Assembly (NCBI GenBank): GCA_041167675.1
Contig: JBEEIB010000146.1
Coordinates: forward strand, 2,935-66,934
Length of the DNA stretch: 64,000 nucleotides
Direction of reading: 5' to 3'
DNA from: Verrucomicrobiota bacterium
Lineage (GTDB): Bacteria; Verrucomicrobiota; Verrucomicrobiia; Chthoniobacterales; JAFAMB01
Below, piece by piece: positions 24,109 through 31,685 of this stretch (the stretch's first letter is position 1; each line of letters begins with the position of its first letter). Under the pieces are notes generated by a model that worked only from the letters and a program-made list of their open reading frames with translations, was not told the origin of the DNA and ran no database searches. The position numbers and the translations under genes are program-made.

Positions 24109-24456
24109 ATGCCAGGCTTAAACGACTTTCTTTCGCGCATACAGACCGATCACGCGTTCTATTTGCAGTTTCGAAAGAACCCGCAGGAAGCATTGACGCC
24201 TTACGAATTAAGCTCGGAAGAGCGAGCCGCTCTGATGGACTCTGGATCACAACTGTCCGCCCGCCTGGGAGAGGTGGTCTTCACTTTGACCGGGACCAAG
24301 AATTTTGTGTCGCTTGGGTCAGCCGATTGGCAGTTCGATCCTGCGGCTGCACTCAGGCGGCCTGAAATTCAGGAGAGCATCGCTCAAATTCGGAACGTGA
24401 CGACCAATGCGGATAGATTGACTCCAGTATTAGCGCTGATTGAACAGGTTGGATAA
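24109..24456 (+). CDS. Candidate split-borosin precursor peptide (115 aa) with an N-terminal borosin-binding-domain-like helix bundle
   Basis: MPGLNDFLSRIQTDHAFYLQFRKNPQEALTPYELSSEERAALMDSG resembles the region preceding the core in OphMA (..LDPKALADYKADHRAFAQSVPDLTPQERAALELGD..) and the N-terminus of stand-alone SonA-type precursors. The stop codon overlaps the ATG of the next gene (TAATG). Confidence 0.65.
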   Translation: MPGLNDFLSRIQTDHAFYLQFRKNPQEALTPYELSSEERAALMDSGSQLSARLGEVVFTLTGTKNFVSLGSADWQFDPAAALRRPEIQESIAQIRNVTTNADRLTPVLALIEQVG

Positions 24457-25268
24457 TGAGCCCGACCTACCAGACTGAGGACTCTTTGCCATTTGATATA
24501 GCCATCGTGGGGCTGGGGATTGTTGGAATCCATCAGATCACCCGGGAGGTCGAAGAGACCATTCGCCGGTGCCGGCATACCTTTGTTATCGATTCGGGAT
24601 TTGGTGTTGTCCCCTATCTTGAGGGTATCTGCCCTGAGGTGACGAGCCTCTTCTCCTTTTATGAGAAGGGCAAGCAGCGGCTGCCCACCTATCGCAGGAT
24701 GGCCGCTGAAGTGATTAATGCGGCAATTACCTGCTCGCCGGTCTGTTTTGCCACCTACGGTCATCCGCTGGTCTATTGCTATCCGGCGGTGCTTATTCAA
24801 AGAGCTGCCAAACTCCTCGATCTCCAAGTGGAGACTTTTCCAGGCATCTCTTCGTTGGACACATTGTTCGTGGATCTCGGCATCGATGTCGCCGCCGACG
24901 GATTGCAAATGTACGAAGTCACCGATCTGCTTCTACGCCGCAGGCCAATCCAAAATGATGTCCCCTGCGTTCTTTGGCAGCTTATTGCGATTGGTGAGCC
25001 GAACTACCAGACGGATCGCATCTCGGCCGAACGGTTTTTGCCTCTGCAAGACTATTTGCTCGAATTCTATCCCCCCGAACATCCGATTATTCTAGTAACC
25101 TCAAAAACGTTTCCATTGCTTCAGTCGACGGTTAAAAAGTATCGGTTGGGGACGCTAGCGGCCGATCTGGAGCATGGTCCACAAGTGGGTAATCTTTACA
25201 TCCCTGCTGTGCGCAGCCGGGAGGTTCGAGATCACAAGCTCCTGGAAAAGTTGACCGCCCGGATTTAA
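24456..25268 (+). CDS. SAM-dependent methyltransferase of the tetrapyrrole-methylase fold, borosin alpha-N-methyltransferase-like (OphMA/SonM type)
   Basis: FDIAIVGLGIVGIHQIT, FYEKGKQRLPTYRRM, ATYGHPLVY, FPGISSLDTLFVDLGID, VLWQLIAIGE and LYIPA line up with OphMA. The recalled OphMA motifs are YYDNGKSRLNTYTQM, FYGHPGVF, LPGVSAEDCLFADLCID, VLFQVGCVG and FYIPP. Confidence 0.8.
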   Translation: MSPTYQTEDSLPFDIAIVGLGIVGIHQITREVEETIRRCRHTFVIDSGFGVVPYLEGICPEVTSLFSFYEKGKQRLPTYRRMAAEVINAAITCSPVCFATYGHPLVYCYPAVLIQRAAKLLDLQVETFPGISSLDTLFVDLGIDVAADGLQMYEVTDLLLRRRPIQNDVPCVLWQLIAIGEPNYQTDRISAERFLPLQDYLLEFYPPEHPIILVTSKTFPLLQSTVKKYRLGTLAADLEHGPQVGNLYIPAVRSREVRDHKLLEKLTARI

Positions 25269-25402: not shown

Positions 25403-27682
25403 CTAGTGTGGCGCTAGCGCTGCCAACAATTTGTCGTAGCGCGGATCCTTACGGAGCGGGTCGAAATAAGGTTCGAGTTTGAGATGGTTGTAGAAAAGGC
25501 CGTACGGTACCTTCGATAAGATGTCCAACTGTTGAAAGGCGAGATCCGGATGGTCAGCCCACGCGTAAACGACAGCAAGATTCATCGCTACGAGGGGACC
25601 ATCCACGGCATCTTTAGAGACGGGTAACAGCTCAACGGCGCGCTCGCCTTCGGAGATGGCATCGTCTTTGTGCCCGAGCAACGCATCGACTACGGCCAAG
25701 TTGCTGAGCAGGATAGCATTTGTCGGTGAAGTCTCGACTTTCTGATTCAATAGCCGCCTTGTCCCGGAACCAACTTGTTCATCGGGCACTTGTCCCTGGA
25801 GCCGAGCGAGCAAGATGGAGTAACAATCAGCCGGAGCCGCAATGTCTCCGTAACGAAATAGCAAACCGTCCTCGCCTCTCACCTTATCAAGTAACTGTCT
25901 CGCTTGCTGCCAATCGCGACGACCAAGCGCTAGATTGAGGCGTTCAGCAAGAACAAGCTTGTCATCCGGTGTGGATGCAGAGAGCGATTCGAGTTGCGGG
26001 AGGTACGCCGTATCGTCTCCCGTTTTTACGACGTTCACATAATATTCCTTCCTCGCCTTCGCCATAGGCGCGTCTGGAACCCGAGCGATCAGTTGATCCC
26101 AGGCCCGCTCAGCTAGCGGGAACTGTCGAGTATTCGAGAGCGTTTCCGCTAAATCTGAAAGCGGTAGAGGATCGTGTGGATCGAGCTTGATTGCTTCGTT
26201 GAAAGAGTGAATTGCGCTCTCAAATCTGCCTTGTCGGCGAGCTATTAGCGCTTCGAGATAGTCCGTTTCGGCATTATTTGGCAAGCCTCGACGAGCGATC
26301 GCTAGCTCCGCCCGCGCGCGTTCATAGTCACGCCGGCTTCGGTAGAGGTGATTAGCGTGGGCTAACCGAACCTCTGGAAGATCGGGTTGCAGACGCAACG
26401 CGTCGTTGATTGCTTGATCTCCCAGAGTGCGCTGCGCAGAGCTCGGATCCCAAACAAGGTCCAAAGCGTCATGGGTATAGGCCATCAAACAATATGCACT
26501 CGCAAAATTCGGGTCGAGTTCCACGGCTTTCTGGAGCAGACTCAGAGCATCGCGCATGGGCCTCTCCTGGTGTCCGCTCACAGCGGACTGCGCACTTGTA
26601 ACTTTTTCTTTAGCCTTAAGATACATGTCGTATGCCTCTAAATTCTCGGTTGGTTTTTGTTCGATCCGCTTTTTTTCTTCTGGAGAGAGTGCAGCTGATA
26701 GTTTGCCCGCAATAGTTTGAGCAACCTCGCTCTGAATTGTAAAGATATCAGTGAGATCCCGGTCGTAGCTATCAGCCCAGACTGCGTTATCACTACGAGC
26801 GTCGACCAACTGAGCACTCACCCGAACGCGGTTTCCGTCCCGGCGCACCGTTCCTTCCAGTACGTTCGCGACACCCAACGCATAGGCAATCTGGCGCATA
26901 TCACGCTTGGTGTCGGCCCGATACTGCATGACCGAGGTGCGGCTGATGACTTTGAGTTGGGCGATCTTGGCCAGGTTATTGAGAATTTCGTCCTGAACTC
27001 CGTCCGCGAAATAGCCATCATCCTTAGCCGCACTGATGCTCTCGAAGGGAAGGACGGCAACGCTCTTAGCCGAAATCTCGGCGAGCAAACCGTTGGCAAT
27101 GGACTTTTGTTGTGCGGCCCGATCCGCTGCGATGTAGAACCACGCAGCTGTCAGGATTGCTGCGGCTGCGACGGCCAGGCCGCCTCCAACTAGCCAGTTG
27201 CGACGCTTCAGTGGGACAGCCAGGCCCGGGTAAGCAGTTGCTGACAGCGCGGCGGGATCCGGGTTGTTGATTGAGTCGCCGTTGGCCAACAGCTTTTTCA
27301 CCCGTTCAGTTAACGAGTTGAGATGCTTTTCCAGCGGAGCTGAGACCGCATCTAACCAGTGTACTGTCTCCAGGAAATAGCTCAGGCTGGTCTGCGGCAG
27401 CGTATCTTCGATGCGAAAAGGAATGACCTGCAGTCCCAGTGAGAAAGCTTTAGCAACTTCCCGTCGAACATGGCCCGAACCGTTCGCGTTTTCGGAAAAC
27501 ACGAGAACGAATACTCGACAAGCGGTGATCCCTCGCATGATCCCTTCGGTCCAATCGGACCCGTATTCAATGTTCCGAGGGGCCATCCAGCACGGGATCT
27601 CGGCAGACTCCAGCTGATGGCAAATAGCATCTGCTATTTCCTTGTCCTTACTCGAATGGCTAATAAAGACCTGTGGCGTCAT
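25403..27682 (-). CDS. TIR domain, TM helix, TolB-N-like periplasmic module and TPR-repeat protein
   Basis: A 759-aa intact ORF. The N-terminal TIR_2-like sequence is VFISHSSKDKEIADAICHQLESAEIPCWMAPRNIEYGSDW...VFVLVFSENANGSGHVRREV. The TM helix is WLVGGGLAVAAAAILTAAWFYIA. It is followed by SVAVLPFESISAAKDDGYFADGVQDEILNNLAKI...VLEGTVRRDGNRVRVSAQLVD and then multiple TPR units. Confidence 0.9.
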   Translation of the reverse strand: MTPQVFISHSSKDKEIADAICHQLESAEIPCWMAPRNIEYGSDWTEGIMRGITACRVFVLVFSENANGSGHVRREVAKAFSLGLQVIPFRIEDTLPQTSLSYFLETVHWLDAVSAPLEKHLNSLTERVKKLLANGDSINNPDPAALSATAYPGLAVPLKRRNWLVGGGLAVAAAAILTAAWFYIAADRAAQQKSIANGLLAEISAKSVAVLPFESISAAKDDGYFADGVQDEILNNLAKIAQLKVISRTSVMQYRADTKRDMRQIAYALGVANVLEGTVRRDGNRVRVSAQLVDARSDNAVWADSYDRDLTDIFTIQSEVAQTIAGKLSAALSPEEKKRIEQKPTENLEAYDMYLKAKEKVTSAQSAVSGHQERPMRDALSLLQKAVELDPNFASAYCLMAYTHDALDLVWDPSSAQRTLGDQAINDALRLQPDLPEVRLAHANHLYRSRRDYERARAELAIARRGLPNNAETDYLEALIARRQGRFESAIHSFNEAIKLDPHDPLPLSDLAETLSNTRQFPLAERAWDQLIARVPDAPMAKARKEYYVNVVKTGDDTAYLPQLESLSASTPDDKLVLAERLNLALGRRDWQQARQLLDKVRGEDGLLFRYGDIAAPADCYSILLARLQGQVPDEQVGSGTRRLLNQKVETSPTNAILLSNLAVVDALLGHKDDAISEGERAVELLPVSKDAVDGPLVAMNLAVVYAWADHPDLAFQQLDILSKVPYGLFYNHLKLEPYFDPLRKDPRYDKLLAALAPH

Positions 27683-28108: not shown

Positions 28109-28960
28109 CTAATTCGTGGCTCCAGCCGTCAATCCCCCACGCCAATATTTCCCAAGGAGGATAAACGCCGCGATGAGCGGCAAAACGCTGATGAGCGAGC
28201 CCAGCGCAATCAGGTGATAGGATGGTTTTCCGCCGCCGGCGGCGTTGATGACGCTGTTCCAAATGTTCAAGCCTAGCGTTAACGGGTATAGATCGTCGTT
28301 GCTGAGGACGATCAAAGGCAGAAAGAAGTTGTTCCAGGCACCGACAAAACTGAGCAACGCCACTGTGACCAAGCCGGACTGCATGAGGGGCATTCCGAGA
28401 TACCAAAAGATCCGCAGCTCACCGGCGCCATCCAGGCGCGCGGCTTCGATCAGATCGTTGGGAAATGAGGCGTTCCAGAAAACCCGCATCAGATAGAGAC
28501 CAAAGGGATTCACCAGGCTCGGCAAGATGACCCCCCAGATGCTGTTCACCAAGCCGAGCCGATAAAGCATGAGAAATAAGGGCAGAACCAGGGCGGTCGA
28601 AGGCACCATGATGGTACCGAGAATGAAGTTAAAAAGAAAGTGTTTACCGGGGAAGTCGTATTTGGCAAAGGCGTAGCCGCCCAACGCGCAAATCAATGTG
28701 CTTCCCACTGAAATCGATCCGGCGTAAAGGGGCGAATTGCCAAACCAACGGACAAAAATCCCGTCTCGAAAAGCGAACAGGTCTACGATGTTTTCAAAGA
28801 AGTGAGGCGGATTGGCGAACCAGAACCCGAAAGTCGTGAAAATCTGACTACTATCCTTGGTCACGGCCGCCAGGATCCAAGTCGCCGGCAGGATGCAATA
28901 GAGAAGGAAGATCGCGAGGACGGCATGACGAAGTGCTCCGGGGAGGGAACGTGCGCCAAT
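28109..28960 (-). pseudogene. MalG-like sugar ABC permease lacking a start codon (5' truncated)
   Basis: The ORF-track version starts at the GTG at 28864, inside TM1. The frame stays open upstream (IGARSLPGALRHAVLAIFLLYCILPATWILAA) to a TGA, with no ATG/GTG/TTG. The EAA loop is FPNDLIEAARLDGAGELRIFWYLGMP. Confidence 0.75.
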
Positions 28961-28987
28961 ATGGGCGGTAGGGACCGGCTCCTGCCG

Positions 28988-29434
28988 GTCCCATTGAAGC
29001 GAGCCGACCTCTCACCTGGGCCGATGTGTGAAGGGGATTGGAGTGCGAAAAGCGGTTATCTCGCCGCACTCGAATTAATCCGCCATCACCGAGGTAATTT
29101 CACCGCGCTGGTGACCGCCAACGATCATAGGGCGCTGGGCGCATTGAGTGCTTTTCACAAGAACGGAATCGCAGTCCCCGATGAAATATCGGTCATTGGA
29201 TACGACGGCATGCCGGAGTCTGAGTTTTATCAGCCCTCGCTGACCACCATTTACCAGGATTTCGCGGCTCTCGGAGAGATGAGTGTTGAGTTTCTTCTAA
29301 GAATGATCAACCAGCCTGGTACTTCGCCTCAACGTTTCATTTTGAAGCCGGTCCTGGTCCCCAGAAGGAGCACCGCGCCGCAGAACCACAAAAGAAAATA
29401 TAAACCACGAATGGACGCTAATGGACGCGAATAA
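28988..29434 (+). pseudogene. C-terminal half of a LacI-family regulator (no HTH and no N-terminal sugar-binding subdomain)
   Basis: GDWSAKSGYLAALELIRHHRGNFTALVTANDHRALGALSAFHKNGIAVPDEISVIGYDGMPESEFYQPSLTTIYQDFAALGEMSVEFLL is typical LacI/GalR C-terminal sequence. The upstream in-frame residues are non-homologous and overlap the permease remnant on the other strand. Confidence 0.7.
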
Positions 29435-29690
29435 ACGAACTTAATTCGTGTTCATTCGTGTCGATTCGCGGTTGAAAAAACCTCGACCAAACAGCGAAAA
29501 GCAAAAACTAACCACGAGTAGACGCTAATGGACGCGAATCAACGGATCTAATGCGTGTTCATTCGCGTCGATTCGCGGTTGAAAAAGCCTCGACCAAACA
29601 GCGAAAAGCAAAAACTAACCACGAATAGACACTAATGGACGCGAATCAACGGATCTAATGCGTGTTCATTCGTGTCGATTCGCGGTTGGA
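29403..29690. repeat. Tandem repeat with a 107-bp unit in about 2.7 copies
   Basis: Units start at 29403, 29510 and 29617 (AACCACGARTRGACRCTAATGGACGCGAAT...GTGTTCATTCGYGTCGATTCGCGGTTGAAAAA.CCTCGACCAAACAGCGAAAAGCAAAAACT). Each unit contains the hairpin GACGCGAAT...ATTCGCGTC. Confidence 0.9.
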
Positions 29691-29700
29691 AAACAACGAA

Positions 29701-31665
29701 ATGACGTCACGAACGCTACTCTCTACACCAAGCCTTGGTGTTTGTTATTATCCGGAACATTTGCTCACGGATTATTGGGCTACCGATTTTGATTCCATGC
29801 GTGAAATCGGAATACGCATCGTTCGCGTAGGTGAGTTCGCGTGGAGTAGGCTTGAGCCGGAGCCAAGCGAATACCGATTCTCCTGGTTGGAGCAACTTCT
29901 GGATTTGGCCGAATCGAAGAGTTTGTCCATTGTCCTTGGTACCCCAACGTCCGCGCGCCGAAGTGGCTGGTGGATCGGATGCCTGACATGGTTGCGGTCG
30001 ATGCATGGACAACGGAAAGGATTCGGTTCGCGGCGCCATTACTGTTTTTCGCATCTCGGTTACCGAAAGGAATGTGTGCGCATTGTAACTAAATTGGCCC
30101 AAGCCTTCGGCGAACACCCGGCGGTTATTGCCTGGCAGACGGACAACGAATTTGGTTGCCACGATACCGTACTGAGCTATTCCGACGCCGATCGCTCCGC
30201 CTTTCGAGCCTGGTTGCGAAACCGCTATCTATCAATTGAACAGTTAAACCAGGCTTGGGGAAATGTTTTCTGGAGCATGGAGTACAGGAGCTTCGACGAG
30301 ATCGAGCTTCCGAATCTTACGGTTACAGATCCAAATCCAGCTCATGAGCTCGATTATCGCCGCTTCTCCTCGGACGAGGTCGACAGCTTCAATCGGTTAC
30401 AAGTGGACCTTATTCGTCAGTATTCGCCGGGGCGAGCGGTTCTTCACAATTTCATGGCGACCTTTCTGGACTTCGACCATTTCAAAGTTTCCAAATCGCG
30501 GATGCGGCGAGTTGGGATTCTTATCCGTTGGGGGCGCTCACGCTGCTGAAGGCGCCCGAAGCGTACAAAGCCCGCCACCTTCGACTGGGTGATCCCGATC
30601 TCAGTGCCTTTCATCATGACCTTTATCGAGCCTGCGGCAGAGGTCGATTCTGGATTATGGAGCAGCAACCCGGGCCAGTGAACTGGGCGGCCTACAACCC
30701 TGCTCCGCACCCTGGCGCGGTTCGCCTTTGGACCTTCGAGGCGATCGCCCACGGGGCCGAAGTCGTCAGTTATTTCTGTTGGCGACAAGCGCCTTTTGCT
30801 CAGGAACAGATGCACTCCGGGTTGAATCTGCCCGATCGACAACCTGACGTCGGTGCATTCGAAGTTCGTCAAACTGCGAATGAACTTTCCCAGCTCGATC
30901 TAGCGTCGTTAGTGCCGGCAGAGACCGCACTGGTGTACGACTACGAAGCCGCATGGACGCTCGCTATTCAGCCGCAAAGGGAGGACTTTGATTACTTTGC
31001 GGTAGCCATCAGCTTCTATCGAGCGCTCAGACGATTCGGTCTGAATATCGATATTCTTCCACCGGGCGCTCCATTAGATGGTTACAAATTGGTAATGATT
31101 CCTCCGCTCCCAATCGTGTCTGCGAGCTTGATGCAATCCCTCACGCGATTTAATGGTCAGGTTCTCATCGGTCCGCGTACTGGATCCAAAACGCCAAATT
31201 TTCAAATCCCGGCCGAACTCCCGCCCGGTCCACTCCAAGAGGTGATGCCGATAAAAATCGTTCGGGTGGAGTCTTTACCGGATTTTGTTTCCTTCCCCTT
31301 GGTGTGGGAATCGGCCCAGTACCAATGCAATTTATGGCTCGAACACGTGCGAACTGATCTGGTGCCATTCATCCGGCTCGCAGATGGACACGGAATCGGC
31401 TATCGGAACGGCAACATCACCTATCTGGCGACGTTGCCGGAGCAATTTTTGCTGGGCGAAATTGTTGAAGATCTTCTAAACGCCGAAGGGTTCAAATTGA
31501 GCGAAATACCACCAGGCATTCGCGTCCGCACCCGCGGGAAGCATCGGTTTTTCTTTAACTATAATCCCGAACCGGTGAAGTTGAATCTGCCGCCTGAAAT
31601 TCGTAATGGGTGTCGCGGAGATGCCGGCCGCTGGTGTGACAATTGTGGAAGTGGCTCCGCTTTAA
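29701..31665 (+). pseudogene. GH42 beta-galactosidase with at least four frame disruptions
   Basis: GVCYYPEH, WQTDNEFGCH, ASWDSYPLG and FWIMEQQPGPVNW match Thermus-type GH42. The expected PPKWLVDRMPDMVAVDA is out of frame between about 29955 and 30010. There is a frame switch at the AAA run 30493-30495. The C-terminus FVMGVAEMPAAGVTIVEVAPL* is only reached after a shift at the AAA run 31597-31599. Confidence 0.85.
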
Positions 31666-31685
31666 GGTGAGCGATGATTCGAAGA

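Follow-up and report, generated by a model that had tools for sequence, protein, structure and literature searches.

The locus described here raises the question of whether a bacterial TIR domain can be controlled from outside the cytoplasm by a membrane-spanning receptor, in the manner of animal Toll-like receptors (TLRs). To our knowledge, the characterised bacterial TIR systems all sense intracellular events. According to a recent survey of E. coli TIR systems, bacterial TIR systems do not seem to possess TLR-like features, i.e. a transmembrane (TM) segment and an ectodomain of repeats (PMC11350192). The 759-aa protein examined in the present study, together with its relatives, suggests otherwise.

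Within the window, i.e. the whole stretch of 64,000 nucleotides that was analysed, the protein is encoded by an open reading frame (ORF) at 25403..27682 on the minus strand, with an ATG start and an intact frame of 759 aa. The best 120 database matches were all relatives of this protein (identity 49-99%), and 113 of them shared the same architecture at full length, indicating that the ORF is real rather than a chance frame. A pseudogene was similarly ruled out, given the intact frame, a 99%-identical database protein and strong domain-specific conservation. No further copies of the TIR gene were found within the window, and a promoter and terminator scan of the locus gave no signal above shuffled controls. 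Profiles, hydropathy and AF2 models together recovered every element of the layout claimed in an earlier note on this DNA (TIR, linker, TM, module and TPRs), followed by a C-terminal cap:

27278..27682, minus strand: predicted cytoplasmic TIR domain, residues 1-135 (TIR_2, AF2, Foldseek)
27656-27661, 27560-27562, 27476-27478 and 27458-27460, minus strand: key TIR residues S8/H9, BB-loop G41, S69 and putative catalytic E75, respectively
27200..27277, minus strand: flexible, predicted cytoplasmic linker, residues 136-161, with KRR at its end (pLDDT, low family identity)
27125..27199, minus strand: single transmembrane helix, approximately residues 162-186 (hydropathy)
26693..27124, minus strand: juxtamembrane stretch (residues 187-203) and TolB-N/CadC-like alpha/beta domain (residues 204-330), predicted extracytoplasmic (NCBIfam, AF2 and Foldseek)
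25586..26692, minus strand: TPR superhelix, residues 331-699 (Pfam TPR families, PDB sequence matches)
25403..25585, minus strand: C-terminal 'TPR end-of-group' cap, residues 700-759, and stop codon (NF047558)

The N-terminal domain was identified by Pfam as TIR_2 (PF13676; residues 5-114, E=5.7e-22, 78.9 bits vs a cut-off of 28). An AF2 model of residues 1-150 (pLDDT 89.2, pTM 0.83) displayed the alternating strands and helices of the flavodoxin-like alpha/beta TIR fold, and Foldseek searches with this model returned 145 PDB matches at E<=1e-3, with TIR domains accounting for 50 of the 50 matches listed. Many of these solved TIRs were matched at a Foldseek probability of 1.00, with TM-scores reaching 0.76. 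The model resembles the TIRs of SPARTA, SARM1, Cat1, AbTir and TRR-2, such that the fold proposed from the sequence is borne out by its matches to AbTir and SARM1, and proven NADases are represented among the best fold matches by SPARTA, SARM1, Cat1, AbTir, BtpA and RPP1. The top match was the TIR of a Hydra Toll-related receptor, with MAL and MyD88 also matched.

For TIR activity a conserved catalytic Glu is necessary, but not sufficient; in known enzymatic TIRs the active site forms only upon TIR-TIR assembly, and the activities of both Cat1 and SARM1 depend on TIR oligomerisation. The closest solved sequence relative of the domain was Cat1 (profile E=7.5e-8), a CRISPR-associated CARF-TIR NADase, whose active-site residues S7, H8 and S68 correspond to S8, H9 and S69 of the 759-aa protein, while its active-site D33 is replaced by A34. 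By sequence alignment, without 3D superposition, E75 coincides with Cat1 E74 and SARM1 E642, and G41 was aligned with G601, the BB-loop Gly of SARM1. In the earlier note the catalytic Glu appeared to be retained within SENANGSGHVRREV, and of the two Glu in this string it is E75 (codon 27458-27460), not E64, that occupies the catalytic position. The corresponding E74A mutant of Cat1 is inactive (PMC12162218). Cat1 and SARM1 differ from the present protein in their inputs, which are a soluble CARF domain and ARM/SAM domains, respectively, rather than a transmembrane receptor.

A TIR-only homology search returned mostly short fragments (a candidate selection effect), and was retained as a TIR alignment, with architectures taken instead from a genome scan. 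Both in alignment A1 (52 TIR sequences) and across phyla (alignment A3), E75, S69 and W32 were invariant, and E75 was also invariant in the 120-sequence family, amounting to >200 relatives. S8 and H9 were, like S69, invariant in A1, with S8 at least 90% conserved across phyla. The BB loop reads PRNIEYG in the 759-aa protein vs PRDIEPG in the consensus of the wider TIR subtype. Judged from these residues, the TIR domain appears enzyme-competent, with NAD+ cleavage as its putative reaction. The domain might instead act as a non-enzymatic scaffold like vertebrate TLR/MyD88 TIRs, and after ligand binding it would recruit cytosolic proteins with a TIR of the same subtype (e.g. TIR-NACHT, TIR-NB-ARC STAND) by homotypic contacts and without NAD+ chemistry. 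Such a role would be in keeping with the Hydra, MAL and MyD88 fold matches, and with the presence in the subtype consensus of the TLR 'Box 2' motif RDxxPG, which is reported to occur in few TIRs of prokaryotes (PMC7075850). However, we consider it improbable, since the invariance of E75, S69 and G41 across phyla is difficult to explain without catalysis, and even the TIRs of animal TLRs were reported in 2026 to make cADPR (preprint 10.64898/2026.04.20.719644).

Following the TIR domain, the linker is modelled at pLDDT <50 from residue 137 and shows a family identity of only 33%. Only one 19-aa hydropathy window reached a value of at least 1.6 (approximately residues 162-186, value 1.94), and this segment is immediately preceded by KRR, a positive-inside flank. 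Across the family, the TM has a mean hydropathy of 2.09, with a K+R content of 3.9 on the TIR-side flank vs 1.95 on the far side, which agrees with the proposed placement of the TIR domain in the cytoplasm. The 759-aa protein is thus predicted to be a bitopic inner-membrane protein of N-in/C-out orientation.

The region beyond the membrane begins with residues 204-330, which contain the motif SVAVLPFE..DGYFADG..LEGTVRR..VRVSAQLVD and gave weak NCBIfam matches to TolB (4.6e-5), CadC (2e-4) and HilA (4e-7). By Foldseek, the AF2 model of this domain matched the N-domain of TolB (4pwz, 2.3e-7) and the periplasmic domain of CadC (3ly8, 1.7e-6), the latter over both subdomains; matches to 3ly8, 3lya and 3ly7 span ~230 columns at E ~2e-6, but with a low TM-score of ~0.36. 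Further fold neighbours included PelC, LpoB and FlgT. TPRs occupy approximately residues 331-699 (~370 aa; many Pfam TPR families, and PDB sequence matches to TPR proteins), and are capped by a 'TPR end-of-group' motif at 700-754 (NF047558, E=1.6e-15; NCBIfam). The TolB-N-like module and TPRs described in the earlier note are thereby confirmed. Among the 113 homologs, identity is highest in the TolB-N domain (88%), followed by the TIR domain (79%), with the TPR region (54-59%) representing the most variable folded part of the family.

Comparison with other carriers of the TolB-N+TPR module, which is abundant (83,279 clusters at 50% identity), revealed its combination with a range of outputs. 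Among the 42 carriers scanned, 12 had nucleotide cyclases and 9 had Ser/Thr kinases, and a carrier with BTAD (P0050) was seen among the database matches, in line with the reuse of the module by CadC/BTAD-type regulators, cyclases and kinases proposed from the sequence. On rhizobial plasmids, 563 records were found to contain the module, those annotated among the ten listed being cyclases. In receptor Ser/Thr kinases and class III cyclases (COG5616-type module), the TolB-N-like segment is up to 80% identical to that of the 759-aa protein, and in the kinases a TM lies ~35 aa ahead of the module, although the output domain differs and some carriers lack a TM, placing the module in the cytoplasm. 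The view of the module as an extracytoplasmic sensor therefore holds in part: a TM precedes it in kinases, but several two-module carriers lack one, indicating that the module is not exclusively periplasmic. CadC/ToxR-type regulators share with the 759-aa protein an N-terminal cytoplasmic output, a single TM and a periplasmic sensor, and the start of the ectodomain is modelled with the CadC periplasmic-domain fold. They differ in that their output is a winged-helix DNA-binding domain, for which the N-terminal domain of the 759-aa protein gave no Pfam match (Trans_reg_C), and in that the present ectodomain is longer by ~370 aa of TPRs. With TolB itself only the N-domain fold is shared (TIGR02800 score 22.5 vs a cut-off of 343), TPRs being found in place of the six-bladed beta-propeller. 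By analogy with these proteins, the ectodomain would behave as an input module, given that the module follows a TM in kinases, is fused to cyclases and adopts a CadC-sensor fold.

The same fold neighbours allow for a structural or envelope-biogenesis role of the ectodomain, comparable to the interaction domains of TolB, LpoB and PelC, in which case the TIR domain might perform other chemistry (2',3'-cNMP synthetase, NAD-cap removal or base release) or be purely regulatory. The resemblance of residues 204-330 to the envelope machinery components TolB, PelC, LpoB and FlgT, the FlgO and FlgT_M Pfam matches found in module carriers, and the general use of TPRs as protein-binding scaffolds are all compatible with this role. 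It nevertheless seems very unlikely: signalling outputs (kinase, cyclase, BTAD) are regular fusion partners of the module, the likeness to the CadC sensor extends across both subdomains, and a single structural function would not be expected where a genome holds many paralogs.

We instead favour, at an approximately even chance, a one-component receptor of the envelope, with ligand-driven clustering as the switch that would activate NAD+ cleavage by the TIR domain. The periplasmic TolB-N/CadC-like domain and TPR superhelix would serve as input, and the cytoplasmic TIR, tethered through the ~25 aa linker, as output. A ligand or envelope state would alter the oligomeric state of the ectodomains, bringing the TIR domains together as in known enzymatic TIRs, and the assembled TIRs would cleave NAD+ at the E75 site. 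The cleavage could produce a nucleotide signal of the ADPR or cADPR type for an unlinked receptor to sense, or else exhaust NAD+ and halt growth. Architecture, folds, topology signals and active-site conservation are directly supported, as are the reuse of each half as a module and the occurrence of nucleotide-sensing effectors beside the TIR subtype in other lineages; we infer the enzymatic activity and its product, clustering as the trigger, the ligand, and the role in the cell, be it in conflict or stress responses or in ordinary environmental sensing.

Linkage to effectors emerged from 80 reference-genome loci carrying the same TIR subtype, as identified by the genome scan. In ~68/80 loci, spread across many phyla, the TIR precedes a TM and an ectodomain of varying type (TPR, Sel1, DUF4185, DUF4189, Tll0287-like and others). 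The adjacent gene was a clear SLOG-SLATT or RyR-TPR-S-SLOG-cyclase gene in 18/80 loci, comprising 14 with SLATT/DUF4231 neighbours possessing a SLOG-like N-terminal region and four with RyR+TPR-S+SLOG-like+cyclase neighbours, with weaker matches at additional loci. These neighbours lie mostly on the same strand as, and closely spaced to, the TIR gene, and the partnered relatives themselves carry a TM and ectodomain, forming two-gene operons with the effectors, e.g. TIR-TM-DUF4185 with SLOG-SLATT at locus L030 and TIR-TM-TPR with RyR-TPR-S-cyclase at locus L072. Aside from the TIR gene, no broadly shared gene was found across the 80 loci, SLATT and RyR-TPR-S being present in only a minority. 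A TIR combined with SLATT is what defines the layout of type VII Thoeris, a system with a cADPR signal (preprint 10.64898/2025.12.03.692087), and by their gene content the 18 loci appear to encode Thoeris-like pairs.

Consequently, the separation of this layout from soluble Thoeris, STING and CBASS TIR proteins, as drawn in the earlier note, stands with respect to membrane anchoring, but is less clean than proposed in view of the Thoeris-type neighbours. The likeness to Thoeris ThsB, and especially to type VII with its TIR and SLATT effector ThsH, consists of the conserved catalytic Glu and the SLOG-SLATT proteins adjoining subtype members in 14/80 loci. Conversely, the 759-aa protein is membrane-anchored with a 570-aa extracytoplasmic domain, has no adjacent effector and, judged from its metabolic neighbours, appears to lie outside a defence island. 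In the literature searched we found no description of ThsB proteins with a TM and ectodomain, nor of any bacterial TIR so arranged, although such descriptions may exist elsewhere. Soluble STAND proteins of the NACHT and NB-ARC kinds also begin with this TIR subtype, and output in this protein class depends on oligomerisation. Their presence in the same lineages, along with AAA_16 fusions of the subtype, would suit the scaffold role considered above. Against that role, the genes next to the TIR in other lineages encode receptors of nucleotide signals (SLOG, TPR-S, SLATT), not TIR adaptors. Taken together, these findings suggest a widespread TIR clade, typically membrane-anchored with a modular ectodomain, of which some members are paired with Thoeris-type effectors.

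The TolB-N+TPR subfamily, found in Chthoniobacterales, is characterised by many paralogs and tandem duplicates (e.g. loci L002 and L093-L097), with at least four membrane TIRs in one MAG. In the window the TIR gene is flanked by ordinary metabolic and fragmented sugar genes, with no defence genes seen. No SLOG/SLATT-type effector partner was found beside the gene, or in a total of ~400 kb of flanking DNA around 48 subfamily loci; a signalling role would hence need an unlinked partner, and the Thoeris-type partnership revealed by surveying homologs was seen in a minority of loci of the wider subtype but not in the subfamily. Across the 48 loci, recurrent neighbours were limited to a convergent TP_methylase with a small ORF and to sugar-ABC/LacI genes, all confined to orthologs at least 69% identical. 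We take this recurrence as narrow-clade synteny, a functional partnership with these genes being the less likely reading. PADLOC produced only weak, generic TIR matches (PDC-S66, SAVED-TIR, ThsB), on which basis no known defence system was assigned.

These observations also bear on a reading that shares the molecular mechanism of the receptor model but commits to immunity as its role, making the protein a sensor dedicated to phage defence by abortive infection. As an 'orphan' ThsB-like TIR anchored in the membrane, it would detect phage attack at the envelope and either kill by NAD+ depletion or pass a signal to an effector of the SLOG, SLATT or TPR-S type whose gene lies elsewhere in the genome. 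The operons joining TM and ectodomain relatives with SLOG-SLATT or RyR-TPR-S-cyclase genes, which match the type VII Thoeris layout, are consistent with this role, as are the weak PADLOC matches and the expansion into paralogs coupled with variability of the TPRs, reminiscent of immune receptor families. We nonetheless regard it as rather unlikely: the window neighbourhood lacks defence genes, no effector was found in the ~400 kb of subfamily flanks, the synteny is stable and chromosomal (sugar-ABC/LacI cluster and methylase) rather than that of a variable island, and ordinary kinases and cyclases use the same ectodomain module.

For the receptor model itself, we counted in its favour the conserved TolB-N (88%) and TIR (79%) domains vs the variable TPR region (54-59%), the tandem paralogs, the linkage of the TIR subtype to nucleotide-signal receptors, the STAND fusions and the reuse of the input module. 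Counted against it were the absence of an adjacent effector, the change of D33 to A34, the PRNIEYG BB loop, the metabolic neighbourhood and the weak PADLOC matches. Should the TIR domain be active and controlled by its ectodomain, NAD-derived signalling would reach the envelope and surveillance of the cell exterior. It would also supply a first output logic for the abundant TolB-N+TPR input module, and a bacterial counterpart for studying how receptor clustering turns on TIR catalysis, a question shared with animal TLRs. Going further, and only tentatively, these proteins might constitute a large unrecognised bacterial class of TLR-style single-pass receptors, combining variable extracytoplasmic sensors with a catalytic TIR and extending transmembrane TIR signalling beyond eukaryotes. 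Through such receptors, events at the envelope (contact with phage, toxins, cues from other cells or from the environment) would be translated into second messengers derived from NAD, with some branches wired to SLOG-SLATT or TPR-S-cyclase effectors, and the Chthoniobacterales TolB-N+TPR expansion feeding an unlinked or wholly new downstream pathway.

Like the 759-aa protein, animal TLRs cross the membrane once, between an ectodomain built of solenoid repeats and a TIR in the cytoplasm; further points of likeness are the Hydra fold match and the RDxxPG motif of the subtype consensus. The polarity is inverted, however, with the TIR at the N-terminus (type II topology) instead of the C-terminus, TPRs take the place of LRRs, and Box 2 is degenerate (N37 and Y40 in PRNIEYG). 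We regard the resemblance as an analogous one of layout. Nor is this layout a one-off, the TIR subtype being usually membrane-anchored with a variable ectodomain.

The open reading frame at 25403..27682 (-) of the window is intact and codes for a 759-aa protein. All of the elements that the earlier note had listed for 25403-27682 (TIR, TM, TolB-N-like module and TPR) were recovered with Pfam, NF047558, hydropathy, and TolB, CadC and HilA models:

Residues 5-114: TIR domain (Pfam TIR_2, E=5.7e-22)
Residues ~162-186: single candidate TM segment by hydropathy, with KRR on its N-terminal flank
Residues 204-330: TolB-N-like module, matched weakly but consistently by TolB, CadC and HilA/EilA models
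About residues 331-699: TPRs (TPR profiles)
Residues 700-754: 'TPR end-of-group' model NF047558

Relatives make up all 120 best database matches (49-99% identity), labelled 'TIR domain-containing protein [Chthoniobacterales bacterium]' by NCBI and 'TolB-like protein/TadD' by JGI, and 113 of the 120 share the same full-length architecture. On these grounds the window probably derives from a soil member of the Verrucomicrobiota (Chthoniobacterales). Identity across these 113 homologs is 88% in TolB-N, 79% in the TIR, 54-59% in the TPRs and 33-43% in the linker and TM. The TM has strong hydrophobicity (mean 2.09) in 112 full-length family members, the 15 residues on its TIR side carry a mean of 3.9 K+R versus 1.95 on the far side, and no signal-like segment was found at the N-terminus. 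These TM and flank features support a cytoplasmic TIR and an external C-terminus, in agreement with the topology proposed earlier.

From a natural alignment of 52 TIR-only sequences, AF2 gave a confident model of residues 1-150 (pLDDT 89.2, pTM 0.83). Foldseek searches of the PDB with this model returned only TIR domains among the 50 matches listed. These comprised scaffold TIRs (Hydra TRR-2, the top match, MAL and MyD88) as well as TIRs with proven NADase activity or signal production (SPARTA TIR-APAZ, SARM1, Cat1, RPP1, RUN1, BtpA and AbTir), including AbTir and SARM1, two of the three TIRs with which comparison had been proposed. The NADase site of Cat1 is lined by S7, H8, N9, N10, D33, S68 and E74, and its E74A mutant is inactive (PMC12162218). 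Phmmer and profile alignments pair Cat1 E74 with E75 of the window protein, and the lining residues S7/H8/N9/N10/D33/S68/E74 correspond to S8/H9/S10/S11/A34/S69/E75. Independently, hmmalign to the human SARM1 TIR (sequence validated by the known G601 and E642 positions) placed E75 on E642 and G41 on G601. E75 is invariant in 120 family members, 52 TIR sequences and 48 cross-phylum subtype members; S69, W32, G41 and R90 are likewise invariant in the latter two alignments. Both the alignments and this invariance support retention of the catalytic Glu, as the earlier note had suggested, with the caveats that Ala replaces Cat1 D33 and that the BB loop reads PRNIEYG versus PRDIEPG in the broad subtype consensus. 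N37 is present in 47/113 TolB-TPR subfamily members. The broad subtype consensus includes the TLR 'Box 2' motif RDxxPG; according to a TIR survey, prokaryotic TIRs typically lack this motif (PMC7075850). In one solved structure (PDB 9m0n/9umd), an 824-aa 'tetratricopeptide repeat protein' that is probably a TIR-STAND-TPR defence protein, the N-terminal TIR aligns with residues 4-79, Glu included (…SEWVKKEI…).

The main new result of this analysis is the wider, typically membrane-anchored clade to which this TIR belongs. Scanning one genome per species with the TIR profile confirmed at least 563 loci, distributed among Verrucomicrobiota, Acidobacteriota, Planctomycetota, Alpha- and Deltaproteobacteria, Myxococcota, Chloroflexota, Actinomycetota and an archaeal MAG. 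In the best 80 loci, ~68 ORFs possess an N-terminal TIR and one TM at about residues 150-250, followed by 150-500 aa of C-terminal sequence. These C-terminal regions form 36 sequence clusters, including TPR, Sel1, Tll0287-like, DUF4185, DUF4189, SH3_3 and PDZ domains, many of them without a Pfam match; the TolB-N-like module occurs in only two of the best 80 loci, both from Chthoniobacterales. A few clade members are soluble TIR-NACHT-TPR or TIR-NB-ARC-TPR STAND proteins. One protein, at L003:6001-7812 (L numbers denote loci bearing relatives of the TIR gene) and encoded in the same MAG as database match P0008, combines a TIR with two TMs, a Tll0287-like (PAS-like) ectodomain between them and DUF4326 at its C-terminus.

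Clustering of all neighbours in the best 80 loci revealed two recurrent partner types sharing a SLOG-like segment: proteins of ~500-640 aa with Pfam DUF4231/SLATT_1 domains (14/80 loci), and proteins of ~765 aa with Pfam RyR, TPR-S and Guanylate_cyc domains (4/80 loci, with weaker relatives in several more). Partner genes mostly share the strand of the TIR gene and are separated from it by short gaps (for example at L022, L030, L036, L042, L051, L072 and L076), and every TIR at these loci carries a TM and an ectodomain. This pairing of membrane TIRs with SLATT and RyR-TPR-S proteins ties the clade to nucleotide signalling. TIR+SLATT pairing is also the arrangement of type VII Thoeris, whose TIR makes canonical cADPR; the same preprint mentions an earlier prediction by the Aravind group that a TPR domain in a Thoeris effector acts in TIR-mediated signalling (preprint 10.64898/2025.12.03.692087). 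In our own reading, TPR-S (Pfam 'Tetratricopeptide Repeats-Sensor') is here that kind of effector domain. The layout was rightly set apart from soluble Thoeris-type TIRs as regards the TM and ectodomain, but the separation is incomplete, since subtype relatives pair with SLOG-SLATT or RyR-TPR-S genes. The gene arrangements were as follows:

L022:1860-6923, L036:2224-7302, L030:6001-9556; also L043, L045, L042, L015, L025, L035: two- or three-gene operons of a TM-TIR (ectodomain DUF4189, DUF4185, SH3_3 or unassigned) with one or two SLOG-like + DUF4231/SLATT proteins
L049:7463-9790, L051:7633-9930, L072:2350-4644, L076:3606-5900: ~765-aa RyR + TPR-S + SLOG-like + class III cyclase proteins, directly adjoining TIR-TM-Sel1 or TIR-TM-TPR genes

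The former, hosted by Dadabacteria, Thermodesulfobacteriota, Terriglobia, Planctomycetota and others, resemble type VII-like Thoeris systems whose TIR component is a membrane receptor; the latter suggest a relay from TIR signal to cNMP.

The reading best supported for the window protein is that of a one-component transmembrane receptor, in which clustering driven by the ectodomain would assemble the cytoplasmic TIRs. These would then cleave NAD+ at E75, yielding either an ADPR- or cADPR-type signal to an unlinked receptor or NAD+ depletion. Scaffold TIRs are among its structural matches, but the invariance of the catalytic residues and the kind of partners seen in other lineages make a purely scaffolding role less likely. 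The TIR fold, the TolB-N+TPR module and TIR-SLATT pairing are already known, and databases label the protein 'TIR domain-containing'. What appears new is the combination, in which a single-pass receptor has a catalytic-type TIR for its cytoplasmic output, and of which our literature search found no description; an E. coli TIR survey states that TLR-like features of this sort seem absent in bacteria (PMC11350192).

For the proposed ectodomain, residues 195-420 were modelled with AF2 (pLDDT 75.7), and in Foldseek this model matched the TolB N-terminal domain of several species (best 2.3e-7), the CadC periplasmic sensor domain (3ly8, 3lya, 3ly7; ~2e-6 over ~230 columns, with a TM-score of only ~0.36), PelC, LpoB, GNA1162 and FlgT, all of them envelope proteins. 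Searched exhaustively, residues 195-345 matched 83,279 clusters at 50% identity (E<=1e-3). Outputs in 42 diverse carriers include Guanylate_cyc (12/42) and Pkinase (9/42), and BTAD is joined to the module in P0050. Matches to the module extend to 563 rhizobial plasmid records, none with the TIR covered; the annotated ones among ten matches listed are adenylate/guanylate cyclases. Carriers of the BTAD, cyclase and kinase types named in the earlier note were therefore found. Its description of the module as extracytoplasmic holds for only part of them: single-module kinases have a TM ~35 aa ahead of the module, whereas several two-module carriers lack one, so the module is not confined to the periplasm. 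The 3-7 copies of the segment in proteins of 1,800-2,800 aa (P0241-P0249 and others) may reflect a true multi-module make-up or the fusion of tandem paralogs in gene calling.

The proposed survey of homolog neighbourhoods, which revealed partners in the wider clade, gave no SLATT or RyR/TPR-S/SLOG profile matches in 48 loci (~400 kb) of the window's TolB-N+TPR subfamily. The window gene is flanked by DUF6058, a convergent small ORF and TP_methylase, ABC permease and LacI fragments, a split GH42 and a P450. The only neighbours that recur in the 48 loci are the methylase (18 loci), the small ORF (17 loci) and sugar-ABC/LacI genes, all limited to orthologs with 69% identity or more. The convergent pair is kept at ortholog loci L001 and L083, and paralog loci L002 and L085-L087 have unrelated contexts. 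Full-length paralogs occur in tandem at L002 and L093-L097, and in one MAG the membrane TIRs number at least four. The role may be immunity or general sensing: immunity is favoured by the Thoeris-like relatives, the expansion of paralogs and the variable TPR region, general sensing by the stable metabolic context and a module common to kinases and cyclases.

Many of P0121-P0240 are short TIR-only or TIR+TM proteins with 60-90% identity to the window TIR. Several resemble truncated or internally deleted copies (in P0143 the TM leads straight to the C-terminal end motif), which points to frequent paralog decay or assembly frameshifts. At 24109-25268 (+), the small ORF (115 aa) is translationally coupled to the 270-aa TP_methylase-family gene through an ATGA overlap, and its N-terminus resembles an NHLP/Nif11 leader (MPGLNDFLSRIQTDHAFYLQFRKNPQEAL...). 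Kept in 17-18 related loci, the pair may represent a small cassette of RiPP-like or modification type. A run of sugar-utilisation genes at 28109-31670 is apparently broken:

28109-28864 (-): ABC permease fragment
28802-29434 (+): C-terminal fragment of a LacI-type regulator
29662-30549 and 30528-31670 (+): GH42 beta-galactosidase, split in two overlapping ORFs

This suggests frameshifts or pseudogenes, or sequencing errors; LacI, permease and SBP genes look intact at related loci.
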